Origin: an uncultured Clostridia bacterium
Lineage (GTDB): Bacteria; Acidobacteriota; Blastocatellia; UBA7656; JADIYM01
Assembly: GCA_964591515.1 (NCBI GenBank)
Contig: CAZQBW010000001.1
Span: forward strand, 36,316-100,315
Length of the DNA stretch: 64,000 nucleotides
Direction: 5' to 3'
In this document: piece by piece, positions 3,766 to 44,925 of the stretch
How positions within the stretch are numbered: position 1 is the stretch's first letter
Layout: each line of letters opens with the position of its first letter
Notes under the pieces: generated by a model
Seen by the model: the letters and a program-made list of their open reading frames with translations, nothing else
What the model was told of the DNA's origin: nothing
Database searches by the model: none
Made by a program: the position numbers and the translations under genes

Positions 3766-6675
3766 CTATGCGCCGTTCCAGTTCCCCCGCACTGGCAGGA
3801 CTCCCGACGTCGGTCCGTAAGAAAAGGCGTAATCCGCCGGGCCGTTGGTGTTGCCATTGCGAAGGAAGAACGTACCTGTAGACGGCACGTAGAGTCCGAC
3901 CGAATCGACCGCGTCGGCGTTCCAGTCACCGGCAATCGGAGTCCACGCCATCCCCCCGGGACCGAACGTGAACACGATGTCAGCAGGGCCCGGGGTCGCC
4001 GTGTTCCTGAGGAAGAAGGCTCCGCTCGACGCGATGTAGATTCCGATGGAGTCCTCTCCGTCGCCGTTCCAGTCGCCGGCCAGTGGCATGGCTCCTGCCG
4101 GTCCGAACGTGAAGACGAGGTCGGCGCCGCCCGGCAAATTGAGATTTCGTAGAAAGAACGTGCCGGTTGCCGGTGAGTAGATTCCTACCGTGTCGCGACC
4201 GTCGTTGTCCCAGTCGCCGACGATCGGCACGAATCCCGCGTTTCCGGGACCGAACGAGAAGACGATGTCGGCAGGGCCGGGTGTGGACGTGTTCCGCAGG
4301 AAGAACGTGCCGGTCGTCGGGGCGTAGAAGCCCGGCGTGTCGTAGCCGTCGCCATCCCAGTCGCCGGCGAGCGGAGTCCATCCCGAGCCACCCGGACCGT
4401 ATCCGAACACCAGGTCCGCACCGCCGCCACTGTGCGCATTGCGGAGGAAGAACGCCGAAGTCGATGGCGCATACACGCCGACCGTATCGCCGACGGTCCC
4501 TCCAGCCGAATTGTCGCGCCACCAGCGCACGAGATCGCGGAAGGCCTGCGGCGGGTTCGTCGGAGCGGGCTGCCCGAGCACCGTGTCGGTCGAGTTGATG
4601 CCGTGGCAGTTGGCACACGACCGGATCTCGCCCGAGGCGAAAGTCACCCAGTAGCGCTCGCGGATGACCGGTACGCCCGCCGGCGTCGTCAGCTGCCACG
4701 ACAGCGCCCGGCGGGCAGGCACGATCGCGGCCATGCTGCCGTCGAGGCCAAGCTGCGTGCTGCCGGGTGGAGCTCCGATCAGCGCCGGATTCCGGCCCTC
4801 ATGCATGACTTGCGCGATTGGTCTGCGGCCGCCTTCGTTGATGACCGTGTAACCGCGAACGAGGTCTCCCTGGTAGAACTGCGCATAGAGCATGTCCGTC
4901 AGCGTCGAGCCCGGAAGCGCAGTCTGGACACCTCCACCGGCGATCCGCAGATTGAATGGCTGCTGCCGGTCCGCGCGCCGTGTCACGTTTCGCGAAGTGA
5001 TGAGCGCGACGTTGTGAGACGTGAGCCAGGACTTCAGCCGGTCGACTCCGGGCTGTCCGCCGAGCTCGTCGAGGAGGATCTGGTTTTCGATGGACGGAAG
5101 GGGATTCTGGTGAGTTGACGGCCGCGTCCGCGAACGGACTTCAACCGGATCGAGCTCCCACAGCGGGCCACTGTAGTTGAGCTGCGAGTAGGAGTAGTTG
5201 TCCCAGTAACTGATCGTCTTCGAGATGGGTGTCGCGAGCAGCCGGGTTCCCGGCGTGAAGTAGGGAGATCCAGGCGTCAGCCTGACGAGATGAAAGTCGT
5301 AAATCGACGACAGCGGCGATCCGGTCTGGTTGTCGTCGTATGCGGCTGTCGTCCGGACAGCGATCAGGGTTCCATCCGACAACGGTGTCGGATTCCGGAA
5401 GTGTCCGGCGTAGTTCGGTGGCGGCGTCTGGCCGTCCGGAATCGGATTGGCGGTATTCGGATCCGTTATGTAGTCGAACTGCATGTTGTCGGGGTTGACC
5501 GACTCGCCACCCGAGATCGCGACGATCTGTCCCGCAGCGTGCGTGCCGAACTCAGGAGCGCGCGTCGCGTAGAACCTGCCCGGAACGAGCGGATCTTCCT
5601 TGTAGTGGAAGGTATTAGTCGCGGTGCGCCGGTTCTGCGGAGCAATGAATTCCGGAAGGTCGTCGTTCGAAGAGTCGAAATAGCTGAGCAGCTCGTGGCG
5701 CCCGACGTGGTTGAGCGTCTCGAGAGCAGTTCCGTCCTCGTTGACCTGCCACGGAAAGAACTGGTTGATCGTGTGTCCGTGGTTGTACTCCGAGGCGGGC
5801 ATGACGCGCAGCTCCGGGTAGATCTCTGCAGTGCTGCCGGTGTTGAGTGCAGAAGACTCAGACGCATAATTGAACGCGCCGTAGTCGTTCGTGCCCTCGT
5901 CGTTCTGCTGGTCGCGCTGCAGGTGATCCCATCGCGTGAAGATGACGCGACCGTCGCTTGCGATGATCGGCGTGAACGAGCCCGAGATGGAGTGATCGAG
6001 CAGCTTGAGGTCCGAGCCGTCCGGATTCATCGACCAGATGCCGGTGTTGGTCGGCTGCGATTCGTATTCGTCGAGTTGCGGATAGCTCGACCGCTTGCCG
6101 TTTCGCGGCCGATCGGATGTGAACAGGATCCGGTCGTCGGTCCCGTAGATCGGCGAGACATTGTTGTAGTTGTCGGGCTGGGCGATCTTGCGGAACTGGA
6201 CCGTCTGTCCCTGACCTATACCGGTCACTTCATAGATCTGCCAGTAGACGGGCGTCAGCACGTCCTTCGTAGTGCCGCCTATCACCATGGAGACCAGCGC
6301 CTTGGTGCCGTCCCAATGGATGGACGGCTCGCGCACCGCAATGTCCTGCAGGGGAGTCGTACCGAAACCGGCCTGCTGCGTCAGGTTTCGCAGCGTGCCA
6401 TCCATGTAGCGGATCCAGAGATCTCCGCCACGGGGCGTCGAACCGGTGTTGGCCTCGTGGTTGCCGAATGTGGCGTTCGTGCTCGTGAAGTCGGCGCCGA
6501 ATGGCGCCTGGGTGCAGAACATCACGGCCGGCGTCATCATCGTTTCGGCAGAGCTTCGTGCTGCCGGAAGTGCGACGACCGAAAGAGTCGCGAGCAATGC
6601 TGCAGAGACGAGCTTCGCGACAGAATTCAGGCGCGCTCGCCGGGGCGACGGGTGAAAGCGCATGGCGTGCTCCAT
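3766..6675 (-). CDS. Secreted multidomain protein: TolB/PD40-like beta-propeller N-terminal region, single CxxCH heme motif (CANCH), C-terminal array of about six 44-aa FG-GAP-like repeats
   Basis: N-terminal signal peptide (KLVSAALLATLSVVALPA). Repeats of type TGTFFLRN..PG.ADIVF.FGPG...P.GDWDGDG.DT.GIY. Motif SCANCHG. Confidence 0.75.
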   Translation of the reverse strand: MEHAMRFHPSPRRARLNSVAKLVSAALLATLSVVALPAARSSAETMMTPAVMFCTQAPFGADFTSTNATFGNHEANTGSTPRGGDLWIRYMDGTLRNLTQQAGFGTTPLQDIAVREPSIHWDGTKALVSMVIGGTTKDVLTPVYWQIYEVTGIGQGQTVQFRKIAQPDNYNNVSPIYGTDDRILFTSDRPRNGKRSSYPQLDEYESQPTNTGIWSMNPDGSDLKLLDHSISGSFTPIIASDGRVIFTRWDHLQRDQQNDEGTNDYGAFNYASESSALNTGSTAEIYPELRVMPASEYNHGHTINQFFPWQVNEDGTALETLNHVGRHELLSYFDSSNDDLPEFIAPQNRRTATNTFHYKEDPLVPGRFYATRAPEFGTHAAGQIVAISGGESVNPDNMQFDYITDPNTANPIPDGQTPPPNYAGHFRNPTPLSDGTLIAVRTTAAYDDNQTGSPLSSIYDFHLVRLTPGSPYFTPGTRLLATPISKTISYWDNYSYSQLNYSGPLWELDPVEVRSRTRPSTHQNPLPSIENQILLDELGGQPGVDRLKSWLTSHNVALITSRNVTRRADRQQPFNLRIAGGGVQTALPGSTLTDMLYAQFYQGDLVRGYTVINEGGRRPIAQVMHEGRNPALIGAPPGSTQLGLDGSMAAIVPARRALSWQLTTPAGVPVIRERYWVTFASGEIRSCANCHGINSTDTVLGQPAPTNPPQAFRDLVRWWRDNSAGGTVGDTVGVYAPSTSAFFLRNAHSGGGADLVFGYGPGGSGWTPLAGDWDGDGYDTPGFYAPTTGTFFLRNTSTPGPADIVFSFGPGNAGFVPIVGDWDNDGRDTVGIYSPATGTFFLRNLNLPGGADLVFTFGPAGAMPLAGDWNGDGEDSIGIYIASSGAFFLRNTATPGPADIVFTFGPGGMAWTPIAGDWNADAVDSVGLYVPSTGTFFLRNGNTNGPADYAFSYGPTSGVLPVRGNWNGA

Positions 6676-6797
6676 TCCGGGGGCGGACGGAAAGAAGTTG
6701 ATGTGGGTTCCGCGTTAGCGGGGGACCGAACTTCGCGATTGTCGGCCATGACCTACGGATCGTCAACACGGGGGGAGGGATTGAAGTTGGAGATGCC

Positions 6798-6900
6798 GGC
6801 GTTGCCGTACAGAGAACACAGAGGCACGGAGAGCACAGAGAAATCTGTTCATCAGGACTCTGTGTTCCCCGTGCCTCTGTGCTCTCTGTACGGCAACGCC
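6798..6900. repeat. CACAGAG-family palindromic intergenic element (about 103 bp, 32-bp arms with 31/32 complementarity)
   Basis: ggcgttgccgtacagagaacacagaggcacgg ... ccgtgcctctgtgctctctgtacggcaacgcc, read directly in sequence. Sits in a divergent promoter region. Confidence 0.6.
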
Positions 6901-6998
6901 TCCTCAGTCTCAGTCGGCGAGACACTCGACTTGAGGTTCCGGCGTCGCAACCATAGAATTGCCCCACCTCCCATTACTTCGAAGCCAGAGGGTTACCA

Positions 6999-9125
6999 AT
7001 GATCCGGATCCACCGTTCGTTGCCGTCCGCCGTCCTGCTGTGCCTCCTGCTCGCCAACGTCGTGTTCGGGTCTTCGGCGCTCGTTCGAAAGGACCAGCAG
7101 TCGGCCCCGGCGCTCGCCGTCGTCACGATCGACAAGATCGGGTACGAGCGTTGGTCCGCGTTGACGTCGAGCCCGGCTCTCGCGTGGTGGGTCGAGGTCG
7201 ACACGCACCTGCTTGTTGCAGGCGATCGGGCGGCGCTGTCAGCGCTTCTCGGCGGTCGCTTCGTTTTCCGATTCCTCGACGGCAGTCCGTCGACGGAGGG
7301 TCTCTACTTCACGAATCGATTCCCGGCGAACGAGATCGAGTCAGTTGGCGCGACCATCCTCGTCTCGGATGGCGGATCCAGCGTCATCCGGGCCACCCCT
7401 ACGCAAGTTGCCTCGCTCGAGGATCTCCACGCGGGCGACGACGAGGACGGCTGCCGCGGGCATGCGACGATCCGGCCATTCCAGCCGAACATGCAGCTCT
7501 CGCATCAGGCAGCCAACAGCAACGTTCCGACCTCGGCCCAGTTCAATGCGGCTATTCAGGGGCTCGTGGATCAGGTCAATGGATCGCGCTGGTTCGCTGA
7601 CGATCAGTCGCTCGCGACTTTCAACCGATGGACGCGTGGCGGGTCGATCATCAACGCACGGGAATGGCTCATCACGCAATTCCAGTCGATGCCTGGCCTG
7701 ACGGTCACGACGCAGTCGTTCACCGTACCGGCGAGCGGAGGAAATCCCGCCGTGACGGCCTACAACGTCATTGCGACGTTGCCCGGCACGACGCGCCCCA
7801 ACGACTGGTACATCGTCGGTGCGCACTATGACGCGATCTCCAACGACGATGGACACGCCACGGCAAGGGGAGCGGAAGACAACGGTTCGGGCTCTACCGG
7901 AGTTCTCGAGCTTGCCCGCATCTTCACCGCAAACCCTCCCGACGCCACGATGAAGTTCATCTGTTATGCGGGGGAGGAGCAGGGTCTGTACGGCTCGATC
8001 GCGCACGCCCAGTCGCTGGTGACATCGGGCGACAACGCGAAAGTCCGCGGGATGTTCAACCTCGACATGATCGGGTACACCGGCGACACGGACCTGGACT
8101 GCCGGCTTGAAACGCGGGCAATCGGACAGGGCCTGATGGATGCTTGCTCGGCCGCGGCGGCGCAGTACACGACGCTGCGAATCGTCACGTCTCTGAACCC
8201 ATGCTGTTCTGATCACCAGCCTTACCTGGACCGTTCGATGCCGGCAATTCTCGCCATCGAGAACGACTATGGAACGTATCCCGGCTATCACCAGTCTTCG
8301 GATCTATCGAACAACCTGACGATCGAAATGGCCGTGCAGATCCTCAAGATGTACGTGGCGACGATCGCGCAAATGGTCGGCACGAGTCCCGCCGGTCTCG
8401 GCCTCGAGACAGCAGGCGTCTATTCCCAATCAACGGGCACATTTTTCCTCAGGAACTCTAATTCGCCGGGCGGCGCCGACGCTGCCTTCCAGTTCGGTGC
8501 GGCTGCTGCTGGCTTCACGCCGCTGGCAGGCGACTGGAACGGTGATGGCGTCGACACGATTGGCCTCTACCGTGGAAACACGTCGACGTTCTTCCTTAGG
8601 AACTCGAACACGCCCGGAGCTGCCGACGTGGTTGTCTCGTTCGGCGCCGGTGGTGCCGGGTACCTGCCGCTCGTCGGCGACTGGGACGGCAACGGCACTG
8701 ACACCGTCGGGTTGTATCAGCCCTCAACCGGAGCGTTCTTCCTTCGCAACTCGAACACTCCGGGTGGCGCCGACGTCGTCTTCACATACGGACCCGCGAA
8801 CGCGACGCCGGTCGTCGGAGACTGGGACGGCAGCGGTACCACCACGATCGGGATCTTCATTGGTTCGACCTCGACCTGGTTCCTCCGCAACTCGAATACG
8901 CCGGGCGGTGCCGACATCGTGTTCGGGTACGGACCTGCCGGTTCTGGCTGGCTTCCGGTTGTCGGAGACTGGAACAACGACAACGCCCAGACTGTCGGAC
9001 TTTATGATCCGGTCGGTGGCAACTGGTTCCTCCGAGACTCGAACAGCGCGGGGCCAGGCACGAACGTCTTCGGATACGGTCCGACGGGCCTGATCCCGGT
9101 TCGCGGCGACTGGGACGGGCTGTAA
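6999..9125 (+). CDS. Secreted M28-family Zn aminopeptidase with C-terminal array of six 44-aa FG-GAP-like repeats
   Basis: Signal peptide. M28 motifs (HYDAISNDDGHATARGAEDNGSGSTGVLELARIF, CYAGEEQGLYGS, FNLDMIGY). C-terminal repeats FFLRNSNTPGGADVVF.YGP...GDWDGDG.DT.GLY, same type as in 3766..6675. Confidence 0.8.
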   Translation: MIRIHRSLPSAVLLCLLLANVVFGSSALVRKDQQSAPALAVVTIDKIGYERWSALTSSPALAWWVEVDTHLLVAGDRAALSALLGGRFVFRFLDGSPSTEGLYFTNRFPANEIESVGATILVSDGGSSVIRATPTQVASLEDLHAGDDEDGCRGHATIRPFQPNMQLSHQAANSNVPTSAQFNAAIQGLVDQVNGSRWFADDQSLATFNRWTRGGSIINAREWLITQFQSMPGLTVTTQSFTVPASGGNPAVTAYNVIATLPGTTRPNDWYIVGAHYDAISNDDGHATARGAEDNGSGSTGVLELARIFTANPPDATMKFICYAGEEQGLYGSIAHAQSLVTSGDNAKVRGMFNLDMIGYTGDTDLDCRLETRAIGQGLMDACSAAAAQYTTLRIVTSLNPCCSDHQPYLDRSMPAILAIENDYGTYPGYHQSSDLSNNLTIEMAVQILKMYVATIAQMVGTSPAGLGLETAGVYSQSTGTFFLRNSNSPGGADAAFQFGAAAAGFTPLAGDWNGDGVDTIGLYRGNTSTFFLRNSNTPGAADVVVSFGAGGAGYLPLVGDWDGNGTDTVGLYQPSTGAFFLRNSNTPGGADVVFTYGPANATPVVGDWDGSGTTTIGIFIGSTSTWFLRNSNTPGGADIVFGYGPAGSGWLPVVGDWNNDNAQTVGLYDPVGGNWFLRDSNSAGPGTNVFGYGPTGLIPVRGDWDGL

Positions 9126-9128
9126 TCC

Positions 9129-9998
9129 GTGAATCGGAGGGCGTTTGTAGCCGCGACAATAGCGGTGTCAGGCGCCCTCCTGCTTTCCGCTTGCACGAAC
9201 CCTGCTCCGACGTCTCCCGCGAGCCGCCACGAACTGACCGGACGTATCGTATCGATCGACGCGTCGTCCGGTCGTGTCACCGTCGCGCACAGGGCAATTC
9301 CGGGGTTCATGGATGCAATGACGATGGAGATGGCCGTCGAACCTCCGTCGTCGGTGGCGACGCTAATTCCCGGCGACAGGATTCGCGCGACTCTCGTCAT
9401 CGACGACGAAAAGACCTGGATCGAGAACGTCGAAAGGCTTGAAGGCGAGGCCGCCGGGTTCGACGTCGATGACGCCAGGGATCCCGATCTCGGCGCACCG
9501 GTCCCGCCATTCGAGCTCACTGATCAGAACGGTCAGCGATTCGGCTGGGAGCGGTTCCGAGGCCAGGCCGTGCTCGTGTCGTTCATCTACACTCGATGCC
9601 CGCTTCCGGATTACTGCGCCCGTATGACGGCGAACTTCGACGAGATCGCGCGCACGCTCGAATCCCGGCCGTCCGGTCGCCGGACCAGGTGGGCACTTCT
9701 GAGCATATCGATCGACCCGGATCACGACTCGCCGGCCGTGCTTCGGGACTACGCAGCGCTTCAGGCGCCGACCGCCGGCAACTTCGAGCGGTGGACCTTC
9801 GCGACTGGCTCTCCGGACGAGGTCAGAGCCGTTGCCCGGTTCTTCGGCCTGTCTTATGAAACCCAGTCCGGACAGATCGTCCACTCGCTGCGGACTGTTC
9901 TGGTCGGTCCTGACGGGCGGGTCGCGAAGCTCTTCCGCGGGAATACCTGGACGACCGACGAGGCAATCCGGGCTCTCGAGTCTGCTGACGCACGCTGA
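9129..9998 (+). CDS. SCO1/SenC-family lipoprotein (thioredoxin-like CxxxC copper chaperone) with N-terminal metal-binding-like extension
   Basis: Lipobox LLSAC. SCO1 motif FIYTRCPLPDYC with downstream His. Confidence 0.7.
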   Translation: MNRRAFVAATIAVSGALLLSACTNPAPTSPASRHELTGRIVSIDASSGRVTVAHRAIPGFMDAMTMEMAVEPPSSVATLIPGDRIRATLVIDDEKTWIENVERLEGEAAGFDVDDARDPDLGAPVPPFELTDQNGQRFGWERFRGQAVLVSFIYTRCPLPDYCARMTANFDEIARTLESRPSGRRTRWALLSISIDPDHDSPAVLRDYAALQAPTAGNFERWTFATGSPDEVRAVARFFGLSYETQSGQIVHSLRTVLVGPDGRVAKLFRGNTWTTDEAIRALESADAR

Positions 9999-10038: not shown

Positions 10039-11577
10039 CTACCGCTGAAAGAGGAATTCCGGTGACGATGCTCCGTCCGGGTTGAGAACACGGACCGAGA
10101 CCGTCTCACCGGCGGGAATCGCCGTCGCCCAGGCGTTTTTCGACAGAGCCTTGTGGCGTGACTTCACCTTCGTATCGCGAACCAGCTCGCCGTTCACCAT
10201 GATCAGACTGCCGGCGCGGATGTCATCGCCTTCGACGATGAGCTTCGAGCCCTGGACTCGAATACCGGAAACGACCGGCGTCGAAGGTTCGCGGTGCTCG
10301 GCATCGATGGTCAGACCGAGGAAGCCGATGCACATCTCGTCCGTAGTCTTCTCGCCCCACGAGACGTCGACCGGCGGAATCGTCGGCTGATTGTGGTTCA
10401 GCTCAGAATTGTCGTACCGGGCCGTGAGCTCGACCCTCGTCGCACCTGGAATTGCCAGAGGCTGCCGGTATTTGTACGAGCCTTGCCAGTGGAAGTCCCA
10501 GTTGTCGATGAAGATGAGACACTGGCGCTCGCCCGTGACGAGGTTCTGGGCCGTCAGCTGCATCTCGCGTCCGAGCAGGTGCATATGCGGCGAGATGTAC
10601 TCAACCTTGACGTTCACCAAGGGCGGAAACGTGAACGACGCCGTAACCGGATAGTCACGCGCGTTGGCGGGAATCGTGAAGTTCTGATTGATAACCGGAA
10701 GGATGATCACGTCCTGGTATACCGGCGACCTCGCGAACTTGAGCGCGATCGACGTCGTGTCGACCTCATCCTGACCGTTCGGCTTGTAATGCACCTGAGC
10801 GACGATGCGAGCGCCCTTCGGCACGAGATAGCCAGTTCCATCACGGAGCACCTGTGGCGGAGCACCCGGTGCCCATCCGCCAAGCGTTCCTACAGTGGCG
10901 AAGCCCGGACCGCCGAAACTCGTGTAGCCGGGACCCGGATCCTGCTGATCGAGAGTAACGGAGATTCCGGTTGCGTCGATGTAGAGGATGACGTGGTGCA
11001 CGATCTTCCGATTGCTCGGGCTCACCTCGACGGCCGTGATGAATCGGTCCGCATCGAAGTTCGTCGGTATCGTGAAGCAGCGATAGATGTCGGCCGTAGC
11101 CGATGCCGGAACCCGGTAACCGCTCGGGACCGTCTGAAGTTCGATGTCAGGCACGCCGAGTTTCCACCCGTTGTCGAATACGAGCGACTCGGGCAGATCG
11201 ACTGGATTGCCCTCGGGAGCACCAGCATCCGCCCACTCCGCGAGCGTCGCGATTTCTTCATCCGTCAGGCCACGCTTGTTGGCGAAGTCGCCGCATCCGT
11301 CGACCGGCTTCCAGGGCGGCATCGCGCGAGATTGCGTCTCGGTCCGGATCGCTTCGGCCCACGGCGCGGCATCCTCGTACGTCATCAGACTGAAAGGAGC
11401 GATGTCACCCGGGTGGTGGCACGTCTGGCAGTTCTGCTGGAAGATCCGCACGACCTGATTCGAGAACGTTGCCGGCTCTGCAGGTGCTGCAGCCTGCGAA
11501 GTGGAGCGATCGGAAACGGCATACGCGCCCGCGGCGAGCGCCAACGCGAACGTGAGCAGACCGAGCGAACGTTTCAT
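10039..11577 (-). CDS. Secreted cytochrome c (PSCyt-like CQTCHH) fused to a copper type-II monooxygenase-like (PHM/DBH-like) domain
   Basis: Start placed at internal MKRSLGLLTFALALAAGAYA signal peptide. CxxCH plus MPPW motif. Motifs HHVILY and SPHMHLLGREM resemble Cu-monooxygenase His clusters. Confidence 0.6.
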   Translation of the reverse strand: MKRSLGLLTFALALAAGAYAVSDRSTSQAAAPAEPATFSNQVVRIFQQNCQTCHHPGDIAPFSLMTYEDAAPWAEAIRTETQSRAMPPWKPVDGCGDFANKRGLTDEEIATLAEWADAGAPEGNPVDLPESLVFDNGWKLGVPDIELQTVPSGYRVPASATADIYRCFTIPTNFDADRFITAVEVSPSNRKIVHHVILYIDATGISVTLDQQDPGPGYTSFGGPGFATVGTLGGWAPGAPPQVLRDGTGYLVPKGARIVAQVHYKPNGQDEVDTTSIALKFARSPVYQDVIILPVINQNFTIPANARDYPVTASFTFPPLVNVKVEYISPHMHLLGREMQLTAQNLVTGERQCLIFIDNWDFHWQGSYKYRQPLAIPGATRVELTARYDNSELNHNQPTIPPVDVSWGEKTTDEMCIGFLGLTIDAEHREPSTPVVSGIRVQGSKLIVEGDDIRAGSLIMVNGELVRDTKVKSRHKALSKNAWATAIPAGETVSVRVLNPDGASSPEFLFQR

Positions 11578-11817
11578 TACGAAAACCCTGTATCGGCGTG
11601 GGATGAGCGCGCGAACCGCGGCGCCCGAACTATACTCCGGACCCGACTCCTGGCTCAACGCCCGGGCCACCCCAATCCGATTTGTCTGGTGAATGCGTAG
11701 ACGGGTCGTTCAACCGACTGAGAACGACCCTGCAACTTCGGAATCTTCATGAGGAACTCCTGTCGCCGGTCGTGACTCAATCGCGTCCTCACCGCGAATG
11801 GAGGCGTCACGCAGGTC

Positions 11818-41249: not shown

Positions 41250-42296
41250 ATGAAATTGAGCGAGGTTGCTGCCGCGCTGGGTCTCGAGATGGGAGGCGCC
41301 AGCGAACCGGAGACCGAGATCACATCGCTAGGCAGCCTGATCGACGCGAAAGCTGGACAATTGACCTACATCGCGGAAGCCAAGCACGCACAGGGACTTG
41401 CGACAACGGGAGCATCGGCTGCAATCTGCCGGACCGAACATGCCGAGGGCGCGCGGATTCCCTGCCTCTTGAGCAAACACCCGGGGGCGGACTTTGCAAG
41501 GGCGAGTCGACTTCTGCATCCGAGGCGGCGAATGGCGGCCGGAGTGCACGACACGGCCGTCGTTGCCGAGTCGGCTACGATCGGGCACGGCGTCCACATC
41601 GGTCCGTTCGCTGTGATCGGCGAAGGCGTCATTGTTGGAGACGGCAGCGAGATCCATGCACACTCGGTCCTCTATGACGGAGTCCGCGTCGGCCTCGATA
41701 CGGTTATCTACGGCGGCTGTGTCATCAGAGAAGGCTCGACCATTGGTGACCGCTGCATCCTGCAGCCGGCCGTCGTTCTCGGAAGCGACGGTTTCGGTTT
41801 CGCGCGCGATGGCGACGGACACTACGAGAAGATCGAGCAACTCGGCGTTGTGGTCGTCGAGGACGACGTCGAAATTGGCGCCGCAACCACTGTCGACCGG
41901 GCCACTTTCGGCGAGACGCGAATCCGCCGCGGTGCCAAGATCGACAACCTCGTCCAGATCGGCCACAACGTGGTCGTCGGAGAAGACACGATTCTCTGCG
42001 CACAGGTCGGCCTTGCCGGATCGACGATCGTCGGTCGCGGTGTGACGCTCGCGGGACAGGTCGGAGTGGCAGGACATTGCGAGATTGGCGACGGCGTCAT
42101 AGCGACGGCACAGACCGGCATTCCCAACTCGGTCGAGGCGGGCAAAGTCGTTTCAGGCTACCCGGCTATCGAGAATCGGGCGTGGCTCAAGTCCTCGGCT
42201 GTCTTCAACAAACTGCCGGAGCTGCAGAAGGCGGTGCGAAGACTCGAAAGGGGGCTCGCTGATCGTGCCGGAGACGACGAATCCGGAGTTCTGTGA
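41250..42296 (+). CDS. lpxD: UDP-3-O-acylglucosamine N-acyltransferase
   Basis: Hexapeptide-repeat left-handed beta-helix. LpxD N-terminal region. Confidence 0.85.
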   Translation: MKLSEVAAALGLEMGGASEPETEITSLGSLIDAKAGQLTYIAEAKHAQGLATTGASAAICRTEHAEGARIPCLLSKHPGADFARASRLLHPRRRMAAGVHDTAVVAESATIGHGVHIGPFAVIGEGVIVGDGSEIHAHSVLYDGVRVGLDTVIYGGCVIREGSTIGDRCILQPAVVLGSDGFGFARDGDGHYEKIEQLGVVVVEDDVEIGAATTVDRATFGETRIRRGAKIDNLVQIGHNVVVGEDTILCAQVGLAGSTIVGRGVTLAGQVGVAGHCEIGDGVIATAQTGIPNSVEAGKVVSGYPAIENRAWLKSSAVFNKLPELQKAVRRLERGLADRAGDDESGVL

Positions 42297-42377
42297 TCTC
42301 TGTGTCTCTATGCTCTCTGTATGGCAACGCCTATGCCGTTGGCATACTGAGAGCACGGAGTCACGGAGACCACAGAG
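42291..42377. repeat. CACAGAG-family palindromic element (contains ctctctgtatggcaacgcc, near-identical to the end of the 6798..6900 copy)
   Basis: Read in sequence. Overlaps the lpxD stop. Lies between convergent genes. Confidence 0.55.
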
Positions 42378-42395
42378 CCGAGACGTTCTCGGTCC

Positions 42396-44873
42396 CTACT
42401 GCAATACGACCGGTGCGGTGAAGATGCCAGAGATGAAGACTCGAACAGCAACCGGCTTTGCTTGAAGGAGTTGCGGTAGTCGCGAGTCTTTGCCGACCAG
42501 TCGGCTGCTCGTTCCGTCCGTCCCGACAAAACGCGGCGGAGCTTTCACTGATCCGAGGGCAGTCTCGCCAACGAAGATCTCCCCACCCGTAGCCGGCAAG
42601 CGCAGTCCGTCGACCGTCAGCTTCTTGCCGCTCGTGGCGAACCTGGCGGATCCAAGAACTGGAGCAAACGGATCCAGCGCGTCCACGGCGGCTGACGATG
42701 CTGTCGCCATCGATTCGATTCCCTCTCCATCAACGAAATCGACCCGCACAGTAGCCGATGCGAGCATCAGGCCATTCACGATTGCTGGCGCGGCCGACTG
42801 ACCGAGCACGAAAGCTGACTTGGATCCCGTGGCCCAGTCGCCGTCCCCGTCAAGATCCACTCGGAGCACGGCGCCGATCGCATCGCGATCCGGCTGAGCA
42901 TCTGCCGCGTGTGCGTCTGCGTCGGAATCCGTTCGAGCTCGCAGACGAAGCGTCCCCGTTCCGGAGCGCGGATTCTGCATGATTCCGATCTCGCCAGACG
43001 ACGTCACGCCAAGATCAACGGTGCCGGAACCATCCCGATCCACCCATACCGCCGACGTCAGGTCCGCAGGCAGAGAGAAGCGCGCCGTCGCGTCGTCGAA
43101 TCCGTTCGCACCGCGATTGCGAAGCACGTGGATGCCGTCCTGCCCACCCTCGACGAGCAGGTCCGTATCGCCGTCGGCATCGTAATCCGCCGGCAATACT
43201 CGAGTTCCCCCCGCAAGCCCCCCGATCGCAAGCTCCGACGTAACGTCGAGAAAACGAAGTTCGCCTCCAACACCGGCGAGCACCAGATTCCCTGCCAGAC
43301 GCGTCGCAACGACGTCGAGCCATCCGTCTCCGGTCACGTCCGCCCACGCAACGGCCGACGCGGGAAAGCTCACGGCAGATCCGAACGCCGTCGACTCGTC
43401 AACCATTCTTCCTTCGGTGTAGCTATAGACTCGAAGTCCGGCTCCGGTCGCGACCAGCAGCCGCGGTCCCCCGGCAAGCCCCGTTACCGGCCCCGTTGGC
43501 GCGCTCCACGTCGACGAAGCATCGACGAAGCCGTCCGCCGTGTTCTTCAGTGCGAGCAGTCCCGTCGACCCGCCAGCCACGACATCGAGACGACCGTCCC
43601 GGTCGACGTCCATCCAGACGACCGCGCGCGGGTCCGCGAATCGGGGAAGAGATGTCGGCGCGCCGACACTGGTGAACGAACCGAGCCCATCGTTACGCCA
43701 GATGCTCGTCGCATTGACAGCGAGCACCGCGAGATCCGGAGTCCCGTCGCCATCGGCGTCGCCCCAGGCGAGCGCGCGAACATCGCCGGGAAGCGTCAAT
43801 CCAGAGGCCTCGGTCGATTCGGTGAACGTCCCGTCGGCCTCCTGCAGGTAGAGGAGGACGCCTCCTGCGCTGCGGCCAACCACGACGTCCTGACGGCCGT
43901 CGCCGTCGACATCGGCCCAGGCCTGTCGCTGAAAGTCGCCGCCGAGAGGCGCCTCCGCGATTGGCACCGCCGTGGACAGCCCAAGCGGCGCGATCGTGAG
44001 GTTAGACCGCGACTGATCGGTTCGCTCGGTACCACCAGTGTCCACTACAACGACCCGGATCCGGGCATCGGTCGTGGCGAGGGCCTCGGGAATGGTCCAC
44101 ACGAATGACCGTGCGGTCGCCGGCAGATTGTCTGCCAGGACGGACGGGTAATTCTCGCCGCCGTCCGTCGAGAGCAGAACACGGAAATAGGATGGCGTGG
44201 CAGAGTCGCCATCGGTTGCGCTCCAGCGAATGACTACGCGCTCACCCGATCCGAGCGGACTGCCAGTCGTCGGCGATTCGAGTCGGACGCGAACAAAGCG
44301 TGTTAATCCATCGATAGTTACGCTCGTTGTGTAAATGTAATCGTAGAAGTCCGTGTGGTCACCGTTGGCCGCATTTCCAGCTGCGTAGAACGTCACGGGT
44401 CCGAGGTCGGTCGATGGCGCTTTCCAGACCATTGACCAGGATACTTCTCCGCGTGATCCGTCATAGGTCCCAGTCAAGGTGTGCTGTGCGTAATACCGGC
44501 CAAGACGCTGCGAAGGCCCGAGTGCCGAGACCGAGAGCGTGCTCGACTGGAAGAAGCCCGCGGCGTGACCGAGTTCGTCGATGGCCGTGATCTGGAATCC
44601 CCACTTCTTGGCCAGCGGATCCGAGACCCTAACGGTCACTGGGTACGTCTGGCCGGGTGTGTACTGTGTCGGAAGTCCCTCGATCGCCACACGGCCGGGG
44701 CCGGAATCGAGTGGATAGGTCCGGTGGCACGTATTGCACGCCACCTCGCTGGGCGCACCGGTCCGCTCGAGAAAGGGTCCGGTCGACAGCGCTTCCACCG
44801 ACTCGGACGACGACATCAGTACGACCGCGGCTACCGCAAAGACGAGAAGGGCGAGTGACTTCAGTAGTTTCAT
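42396..44873 (-). CDS. Secreted FG-GAP/VCBS-repeat protein with N-terminal CxxCH motif (CNTCH)
   Basis: Signal peptide MKLLKSLALLVFAVAAVVL. Repeated D.DGDG..D motifs (DVDGDGRQDVVVG, GDADGDGTPDL, DVDRDGRLDVV, DVTGDGWLDVV, DYDADGDTDLL). Confidence 0.75.
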   Translation of the reverse strand: MKLLKSLALLVFAVAAVVLMSSSESVEALSTGPFLERTGAPSEVACNTCHRTYPLDSGPGRVAIEGLPTQYTPGQTYPVTVRVSDPLAKKWGFQITAIDELGHAAGFFQSSTLSVSALGPSQRLGRYYAQHTLTGTYDGSRGEVSWSMVWKAPSTDLGPVTFYAAGNAANGDHTDFYDYIYTTSVTIDGLTRFVRVRLESPTTGSPLGSGERVVIRWSATDGDSATPSYFRVLLSTDGGENYPSVLADNLPATARSFVWTIPEALATTDARIRVVVVDTGGTERTDQSRSNLTIAPLGLSTAVPIAEAPLGGDFQRQAWADVDGDGRQDVVVGRSAGGVLLYLQEADGTFTESTEASGLTLPGDVRALAWGDADGDGTPDLAVLAVNATSIWRNDGLGSFTSVGAPTSLPRFADPRAVVWMDVDRDGRLDVVAGGSTGLLALKNTADGFVDASSTWSAPTGPVTGLAGGPRLLVATGAGLRVYSYTEGRMVDESTAFGSAVSFPASAVAWADVTGDGWLDVVATRLAGNLVLAGVGGELRFLDVTSELAIGGLAGGTRVLPADYDADGDTDLLVEGGQDGIHVLRNRGANGFDDATARFSLPADLTSAVWVDRDGSGTVDLGVTSSGEIGIMQNPRSGTGTLRLRARTDSDADAHAADAQPDRDAIGAVLRVDLDGDGDWATGSKSAFVLGQSAAPAIVNGLMLASATVRVDFVDGEGIESMATASSAAVDALDPFAPVLGSARFATSGKKLTVDGLRLPATGGEIFVGETALGSVKAPPRFVGTDGTSSRLVGKDSRLPQLLQAKPVAVRVFISGIFTAPVVLQ

Positions 44874-44925
44874 GATCGCCGGGAATGGTACCACGACGCG
44901 TCGCGAACGAACCTCGGTGCTCAAG

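Follow-up and report, generated by a model that had tools for sequence, protein, structure and literature searches.

Why should two divergently transcribed genes whose products are otherwise unrelated end in the same tandem-repeat array, and what would such an array do? The question is raised by a 64,000-nt stretch of contig CAZQBW010000001.1 (positions 36,316 to 100,315, forward strand; hereafter the window) from an uncultured soil bacterium of the Blastocatellia, in which a secreted protein first described as TolB-like (p1) and a secreted M28 aminopeptidase (p2) share a C-terminal repeat module. As judged from sequence and structure prediction, each array would be one discrete domain of the VCBS/FG-GAP (integrin-like) superfamily with five four-stranded blades, an assignment that we hold with much greater confidence than any reading of its function. 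With regard to function, we consider it somewhat probable that the module is a non-catalytic, calcium-stabilized, multivalent, glycan-binding (lectin-type) domain for targeting or anchoring. The original prediction had proposed a shared role in targeting, anchoring or ligand binding; in our analysis this stands as the best reading of the module, and goes no further than that. The locus itself is ordinary modular architecture, and the module is an unnamed member of a known superfamily.

Structure of the repeat arrays

The repeat pattern FFLRN...GADxVFxFG...PxxGDWDGDGxDTxGxY reported in the original prediction was recovered in both C-termini, together with the array ends ...PVRGNWNGA and ...PVRGDWDGL. 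Counting of the [FW]FLR[ND] motif revealed five repeats of 47-49 amino acids (aa) per protein in place of the six of ~44 aa that had been claimed (Table 1). Repeat start-to-start spacing was 49, 49, 47 and 49 aa in both arrays, and a DNA repeat finder returned the same periodicity (147/147/141/147 nt). The arrays of p1 and p2 are 59% identical at the protein level over 239 aa (E = 8e-93) and highly symmetric internally, with a blade-to-blade identity of 52-66%; the parts of the two proteins outside the arrays have no mutual similarity. A tblastn search of the window for further array copies identified only these two, plus a weak match (E = 0.024) in the gene at 42396-44924 (-). The 842-aa product of that gene, used as an internal control, combines a Kre9/KNH-like immunoglobulin (Ig) domain with canonical repeats that match FG-GAP_3 at E = 9e-34.

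For the p2 array, AlphaFold2 (AF2) run on an alignment of 60 sequences predicted a closed propeller of 20 strands, arranged as five blades of four strands each (predicted local distance difference test score, pLDDT, 97.3; predicted template modelling score, pTM, 0.92). A seven-bladed propeller had been suggested; the module has five blades, and the template modelling (TM) score of its model to seven-bladed targets of the integrin-alpha/PVL type was ~0.46. From the register of the sequence and the strand order given by DSSP, the blade layout would be PxxGDW on strand A, TxGxY on strand B, FFLRN on strand C and xVFxFG on strand D. The connecting loops would be a calcium-type Dx[DN]xDG loop between A and B (DWDGDG), xNxPGxAD between C and D, and a variable loop between D and the next strand A (A'). 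Because the array opens on strand B and closes on strand A, the usual 'velcro' closure, with the last strand set against the first three, is expected.

Two features of these loops bear on ligand binding. The D-A' loop of blades 1, 2 and 4 (49 aa) of both proteins contains a G-aromatic pair (G-W, G-F or G-Y), and no such pair is found in the D-A' loop of the short blades 3 and 5 of either array. These pairs suggest three candidate pockets, at the same positions in the p1 and p2 arrays. The Dx[DN]xDG motif was identified in p1 blades 1-3 (DWDGDG, DWDNDG, DWNGDG) and p2 blades 1-2 (DWNGDG, DWDGNG). Conservation across 328 arrays was at least 90% in the core strands and the GDWDGDG loop (GDW), and lowest in the B-C and D-A' loops.

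The internal symmetry bears on a catalytic or metal-cofactor propeller, of the type represented by AUDH dehydratase and RGL11 lyase, both of which sit in the same VCBS-related supercluster (PMC8023676). With blades this alike, no single blade carries a distinct set of conserved residues, and the domains to which the module is fused are catalytic in their own right. A catalytic role is therefore very unlikely.

Placement in the superfamily was examined by profile and by structure. Neither the whole proteins (12.5 and 12.6 bits) nor the arrays alone (20.4 and 13.6 bits) reached the 26.9-bit threshold of Pfam FG-GAP_3 (PF13517); an idealized consensus blade repeated five times passed it with 36.4 bits. 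Sub-threshold scores for the real arrays combined with a passing score for the consensus indicate a divergent, remote branch of the VCBS/FG-GAP superfamily and not plain FG-GAP_3. The description of the repeat as FG-GAP-like but distinct thus held, since a high-scoring match to plain FG-GAP did not occur (12.5-20.4 versus 26.9 bits). Among the matches listed, ~15% of array homologs carry a precomputed PF13517 match. Foldseek comparison of the array model with the PDB returned the N-acetylglucosamine (GlcNAc) lectins PVL, PAL and AAL2, integrin alphaIIb and TcB as best matches (probability 1.0, E = 2e-4 to 1e-2), with BBS propellers also among the matches; the blades of the AF2 model resemble those of integrins and PVL. 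The best structural matches of the array are lectin propellers, namely Streptomyces UmbA4, tachylectin-2 and PVL. Searched by sequence, the PDB gave no match to the array, to the 60-sequence array profile or to a 10-blade profile.

At the DNA level the arrays are homologous and inverted, as the original prediction had stated; their coordinates (Table 1) separate them by 3.9 kb instead of the ~2 kb given there. Inverted homologous arrays could act as recombination substrates, inverting the 3.9-kb segment or swapping the C-termini. The nucleotide sequences of the two arrays are ~70% identical, and no exact match between them exceeds 17 nt. RecA-dependent recombination needs at least roughly 25 nt of perfect identity, which makes inversion implausible with a longest match of this length. 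The closest locus (L001), from a Blastocatellia metagenome-assembled genome (MAG), encodes a p1 ortholog of 86% and a p2 ortholog of 77% identity in the same divergent arrangement, so that arrangement and orientation are retained despite 14-23% protein divergence. A flip would moreover exchange the N-terminal parts of the two genes, which would then no longer be in frame with the promoters. Taken together, these data leave recombination through the arrays with a next to negligible probability.

Distribution, domain partners and within-genome similarity

A blade profile searched against 1.84 billion representative proteins gave 11,887 matches at E ≤ 1e-3, 7,542 at E ≤ 1e-10 and 3,061 at E ≤ 1e-30, and the module is present in ~7,500 protein clusters (50% identity) from many phyla. 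Among the best 150 of the 11,887 matches, all but a few had five blades or a multiple of that number (10, 15 or 20); in 78 genome loci, 106 of the 111 arrays had exactly five blades. Arrays in these loci lie mostly at the extreme C-terminus, with a few N-terminal, internal or duplicated, and stand-alone proteins that consist of a signal peptide and a propeller (283-340 aa) also exist. The genome scan placed the window in the Blastocatellia (Acidobacteriota) and identified the module in Acidobacteriota, Planctomycetota, Chloroflexota, Actinomycetota, Armatimonadota, Gammaproteobacteria and one Methanoperedens MAG, often with many paralogs per genome. The public names of module-bearing proteins are all taken from their other domains, and the module itself is effectively unannotated.

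When the 239-aa array was used as the query of a protein search, all 120 best matches were at most 419 aa long and full-length orthologs of p1 and p2 were absent; the word-indexed search seems biased toward proteins of query length. Because partner statistics drawn from these matches would be skewed to short proteins, our survey was based on complete open reading frames (ORFs) from genome loci. Profile searches of the N-terminal partners identified 70 Pfam families in 86 genome-derived proteins, in agreement with the proposal that one module is grafted onto unrelated N-terminal parts. These families included metalloproteases (M12B, M10, M36, M28), subtilases (S8), pyrroloquinoline quinone (PQQ) sugar dehydrogenases (GSDH) and GH38, as well as SBBP and DUF5122 propellers, CARDB, SdrD_B, Ig- and cadherin-like domains and NosD/beta-helix. 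Metagenome matches added DUF11, M23, CAP, CHAP and beta-lactamase. Overall, the partners are overwhelmingly secreted hydrolases, mostly proteases, and adhesin-type domains.

The position of the array, mostly at the extreme C-terminus of secreted proteases, and its calcium-type loops would also suit an aid to export or folding, that is, a calcium-dependent C-terminal folding nucleus or a pro-domain (compare PPC and RTX blocks) that is cleaved after secretion and plays no part in the mature enzyme. Several findings argue against this explanation and make it quite unlikely. The module also occurs in N-terminal and internal positions and in tandem sets of 10, 15 and 20 blades; it is joined to non-protease partners, and the phyla and archaea that have it differ in their secretion systems. 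Its length of 240 aa and its variable surface loops do not resemble those of a sorting tag, and the stand-alone proteins carry little beyond a signal peptide and the propeller.

Neighboring copies were common, with two or three module genes within ~10 kb in 25 of the 78 loci. In L010, L018, L025, L029, L060, L061, L064, L069, L073 and others, the neighbors have unrelated N-termini and arrays that are 66-96% identical. The median array identity was 78% within a locus, 72% between different loci of the same genome and 48% between different genomes. The difference between same-genome and different-genome identity was strong (Mann-Whitney P = 7e-48); that between within-locus and same-genome identity was marginal (P = 0.03). 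The p1/p2 pair, at about 60%, lies near the bottom of the same-genome range.

Array relationships were also derived from an identity matrix with average-linkage clustering. The p2 array ranked 29th among the neighbors of p1, and the p1 array 9th among those of p2. We considered the two arrays as a private, recently exchanged pair and rejected this, since neither is the other's nearest relative; the special relationship implied by the original prediction was thus not borne out. The grafting seen in p1 and p2 is one instance of a general genome-wide pattern and no peculiarity of the pair.

The Candidatus Methanoperedens locus (L029, JAPZAP010000123) contains three consecutive genes of ~540-560 aa whose N-terminal parts are mutually unrelated and whose arrays share 91-93% identity, and places the module in an archaeal MAG (bin taken as deposited).

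The high similarity of arrays within a genome suggests that they are shuffled or undergo gene conversion inside that genome, or that a common, lineage-specific ligand keeps them under selection. That ligand might be a protein. The module would then be a protein-protein or self-recognition/adhesion domain, similar to an integrin alpha head, that binds an envelope or S-layer protein or other module proteins and builds an exoenzyme complex at the surface. Within-genome homogeneity fits co-evolution with a lineage-specific protein partner, the Foldseek matches include integrin alpha and BBS propellers, and VCBS propellers may mediate protein-protein interaction and self-recognition (PMC9218822). 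We nevertheless judge a protein ligand to be rather unlikely and favor a glycan, on the grounds given below.

The two genes and the region between them

The divergent ORF pair was found at 3766-6675 (-) and 6999-9125 (+), exactly as originally predicted (Table 1). For p1, the earlier 'TolB-like' label understates the protein. An AF2 model of its 730-aa core (pLDDT 87.9) had hydrazine synthase alpha (5c2v_A) as its best Foldseek match in the PDB, over the whole length (E = 7.5e-17, 762 columns), with TolB (2ivz_D) in tenth place (E = 3e-5, TM 0.18/0.31). No PD40 repeats were identified in p1 with Pfam at E up to 1. The Pfam HZS_alpha family scored near its threshold (23.5 bits versus a cut-off of 26.6) around CANCH, whose residues C687, C690 and H691 are invariant in 52 homologs; most homologs of the core carry PF18582. 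The core thus has the N-terminal propeller and CxxCH-containing HZS_alpha middle domain of hydrazine-synthase-alpha-like proteins. PDB sequence searches with the core gave no match. By inspection, CANCH is the sole CxxCH noted in the p1 translation, and no HzsB or HzsC genes lie beside p1; on these grounds p1 is not a hydrazine synthase. Proteins with an HZS_alpha domain and no assigned function have been reported to be common (PMC12758564).

The p1 core belongs to a family of at least 3758 homologs (50-90% identity) from Acidobacteriota, Planctomycetota, Deltaproteobacteria, Sumerlaeota and Hydrogenedentes. Its members end at the core or in TIGR03437, BACON, CHRD, TIG, CarboxypepD_reg, dockerin, PKD, fn3 or FG-GAP_3. 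These alternative C-terminal modules support the idea that the propeller fills an interchangeable 'binding module' slot. At the N-terminus of p1, a basic n-region precedes a hydrophobic helix (aa 20-31) of low pLDDT, an arrangement that on inspection suggests a signal peptide.

The M28 label of p2 was upheld by a match to Peptidase_M28 (PF04389; E = 5e-35, 121.4 bits versus a cut-off of 21.3), and the M28 motifs HYDA, EDNGSG, GEEQGLYGS, NLDMIG and YHQSSD were located in the translation by inspection. A match to an NCBIfam LapA-like model (E = 9e-16) fell under the cut-off of that model. The hydrophobic N-terminus of p2, MIRIHRSLPSAVLLCLLLANVVFG, is a predicted signal peptide, likewise by inspection.

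Directly downstream, a CusF-SCO1/SenC fusion gene (9129-9998, +) begins 4 nt past the stop codon of p2; the two genes probably share a transcript. The next gene (10039-11670, -) encodes a protein of 543 aa whose N-terminal part has a cytochrome c motif, and L001 has ORFs that match both genes in size, strand and order. A copper/heme maturation context beside the heme protein p1 is possible. On the other side, the strong hairpin past the p1 stop codon has a 17+6 bp stem without a T-run, so that a simple terminator scan would miss it; it is probably a terminator, or else another palindromic repeat.

The intergenic region measures 323 bp, in line with the ~320 bp predicted, and the near-perfect hairpin at 6798-6900 was likewise recovered (arms 93% complementary, -87.8 kcal/mol, z = -13.75 versus shuffles). 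Two sigma-70-like sites were found in the region against 0.0 expected, with the hairpin between them. L001 retains the -35 box TTGACG of the p1 candidate and the -10 box TAGAAT of the p2 candidate (by eye). Because the L001 region is 181 bp long and has no hairpin, the element represents a lineage-specific ~140-nt insertion that separates the two candidate core promoters; its bounds (~6775-6925) were set by eye from the promoter-like boxes shared with L001, as the MAFFT alignment of the two regions was poor. The hairpin had been taken as part of a shared promoter region; it proved to be a dispersed-repeat insertion, absent from L001, and not part of a conserved regulatory region.

A related, permuted copy of this element lies at 42290-42378 between convergent genes, directly 3' of the stop codon of the gene at 42396-44924 (-). 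When metagenomes were scanned with an 18-mer taken from the arm, full hairpins of the same design were identified in four soil contigs (L082, L100, L108, L119; -80 to -97 kcal/mol), along with about ten half-elements, mostly from two soil assemblies. The arms of the family (GGCGTTGCCGTACAGAGAGCACAGAGNCACGGAG...) contain 8-9-nt CACAGAG/CACGGAG sub-repeats. The elements are arranged head-to-head and tail-to-tail, and were intergenic in all cases seen. The only Rfam matches between 3000 and 10000, to microRNA precursors, were sub-threshold and were rejected as generic long-hairpin similarity.

Table 1. Coordinates of the features of the p1/p2 locus (positions in the window)
Feature	Position	Strand	Details or basis
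p1 array, aa 731-969	3769..4485	-	five blades: 4339-4485, 4192-4338, 4051-4191, 3904-4050, 3769-3903
p2 array, aa 471-708	8409..9122	+	five blades: 8409-8555, 8556-8702, 8703-8843, 8844-8990, 8991-9122
Gene p1, secreted hydrazine-synthase-alpha-like protein with C-terminal five-bladed propeller	3766..6675	-	969 aa ORF
Gene p2, secreted M28 aminopeptidase with C-terminal five-bladed propeller	6999..9125	+	708 aa ORF
p1 core, aa ~45-730, beta-propeller and heme-c 'middle domain'	4486..6543	-	AF2 model, Pfam, PDB match
CANCH, aa 687-691 of p1, c-type heme-binding CxxCH motif	4603..4617	-	read off translation
Peptidase_M28 catalytic domain, aa 256-448 of p2	7764..8342	+	Pfam
Strong hairpin, 34 nt past p1 stop codon	3666..3732	-	-63.1 kcal/mol, z = -6.9
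Divergent intergenic region, 323 bp	6676..6998		L001 counterpart 181 bp
Palindromic repeat element (insertion), 103 nt	6798..6900		43-nt arms, 17-nt loop
p1 sigma-70-like promoter candidate (TTGACG, 17 nt, GACAAT)	6738..6766	-	consensus match only
p2 sigma-70-like promoter candidate (TTGAGG, 17 nt, TAGAAT)	6931..6959	+	consensus match only

Proposed function and likeness to known systems

A glycan-binding role is consistent with the behavior of related propellers. PVL, integrins and tachylectins share one VCBS supercluster, marked by the DxDxDG loop and by a sugar-pocket G-W in loop D-A' (PMC8023676); in PVL and tachylectin-2 the pocket is formed by this G-W motif, and carbohydrates are the usual ligands of VCBS-like propellers (PMC8023676; PMC9218822). 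UmbA propellers bind a cell-wall glycopolymer, and their core and calcium loops are conserved and their pocket residues variable (PMC13274773). The conserved core and variable loops of our 328 arrays follow the same pattern as the carbohydrate-binding blades of UmbA4 (PMC13274773). In the mechanism that we propose, the propeller would tether secreted enzymes, here the M28 aminopeptidase and the heme-c propeller protein, to a polysaccharide-bearing surface. Candidates for this surface are the envelope or matrix of the producer itself and a glycan-coated substrate such as the walls of other microbes. The module would spread between genes by domain shuffling and be kept similar within a genome.

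Several points weigh against a lectin-type anchor. Contacts between proteins and, in rare cases, catalysis are also served by VCBS/FG-GAP propellers. The other blades of the two arrays have degenerate forms of the Dx[DN]xDG motif (DWNADA and NWNGA in p1, DWDGSG and DWNNDN in p2). Since no solved structure is detectable by sequence, the lectin assignment follows from analogy of fold and motif, and the lectin role, calcium binding and surface location are predictions for every member of the family. The similarity of arrays within a genome, finally, could stem from recent duplication or gene conversion instead of a shared ligand.

We also put forward, tentatively and with low confidence, a broader version of the glycan-binding role. 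In this version the FFLRN propeller would be a phylum-spanning 'anchor' domain for a lineage-specific envelope or matrix glycan, and the within-genome similarity (72-78% versus 48%) would reflect co-evolution of all copies with that ligand. If so, the module would organize a set of exoenzymes on the surface of its producer, functionally like the SLH-SCWP or dockerin-cohesin systems. This would hold for Acidobacteriota, Planctomycetota, Chloroflexota and Actinomycetota, and even for Methanoperedens.

The module marks ~7,500 protein clusters (50% identity) in abundant, hard-to-culture phyla of soil and water, and current annotation either takes the names of these proteins from their other domains or gives them none. 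With a profile of its own for the module, the secreted proteome of Acidobacteriota, Planctomycetota and Chloroflexota would be better annotated, and the identity of the ligand would reveal how these organisms place their proteases and other exoenzymes. With its fixed blade count, internal symmetry and within-genome homogeneity, the module also offers a clean case for the study of domain shuffling and concerted propeller evolution.

Compared with the VCBS/FG-GAP superfamily at large (PF13517; PMC8023676; PVL, integrin alpha heads, TcB), the module shares the G-aromatic pair in D-A', as in the sugar pockets of PVL, and the window proteins are likewise secreted, multidomain and bacterial. It differs in having five blades instead of seven, in the FFLRN strand C and in the GxAD C-D loop. 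The acidic residue that follows DxDxDG, read from sequence, is at motif position 8 in the module, versus what we take to be position 9 in integrins.

Among the lectin propellers, UmbA of the Streptomyces umbrella toxins (UmbA4 9oee, UmbA1 8w20; PMC13274773, PMC11062931) differs from the module in blade number, with six blades in UmbA4 compared with five here. UmbA also has a trypsin-like N-terminal domain and assembles with UmbB and UmbC, none of which is present in the window proteins. In place of a UmbB-docking trypsin-like domain, the N-terminal parts of p2 and p1 are an M28 peptidase and a hydrazine-synthase-alpha-like core; the Trypsin family is not among the 25 commonest of the 70 partner families, and no sequence homology between UmbA and the array was detectable. 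Tachylectin-2 (PDB 1tl2) is a five-bladed lectin for GlcNAc and N-acetylgalactosamine (GalNAc) with 47-aa repeats. It differs in being a stand-alone eukaryotic protein with 7% identity to the array; the array has no homology to the tachylectin-2 family at the level of Pfam or hidden Markov model comparison, and tachylectin-like propellers are without the DxDxDG loop (PMC8023676).

In its use, the module resembles the targeting modules of secreted bacterial enzymes (carbohydrate-binding modules, PPC, PKD, BACON, dockerin, SLH), which are likewise promiscuous and mostly C-terminal appendages; their folds are unlike that of the window module. In our assessment, the superfamily, the lectin role and the modular use are already known, and a catalogue of five-bladed lectin propellers on secreted proteins exists for Streptomyces. 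The novelty lies in one specific family, widespread and as yet unnamed, that combines the FFLRN strand C with a strictly five-bladed unit and homogeneity within genomes.

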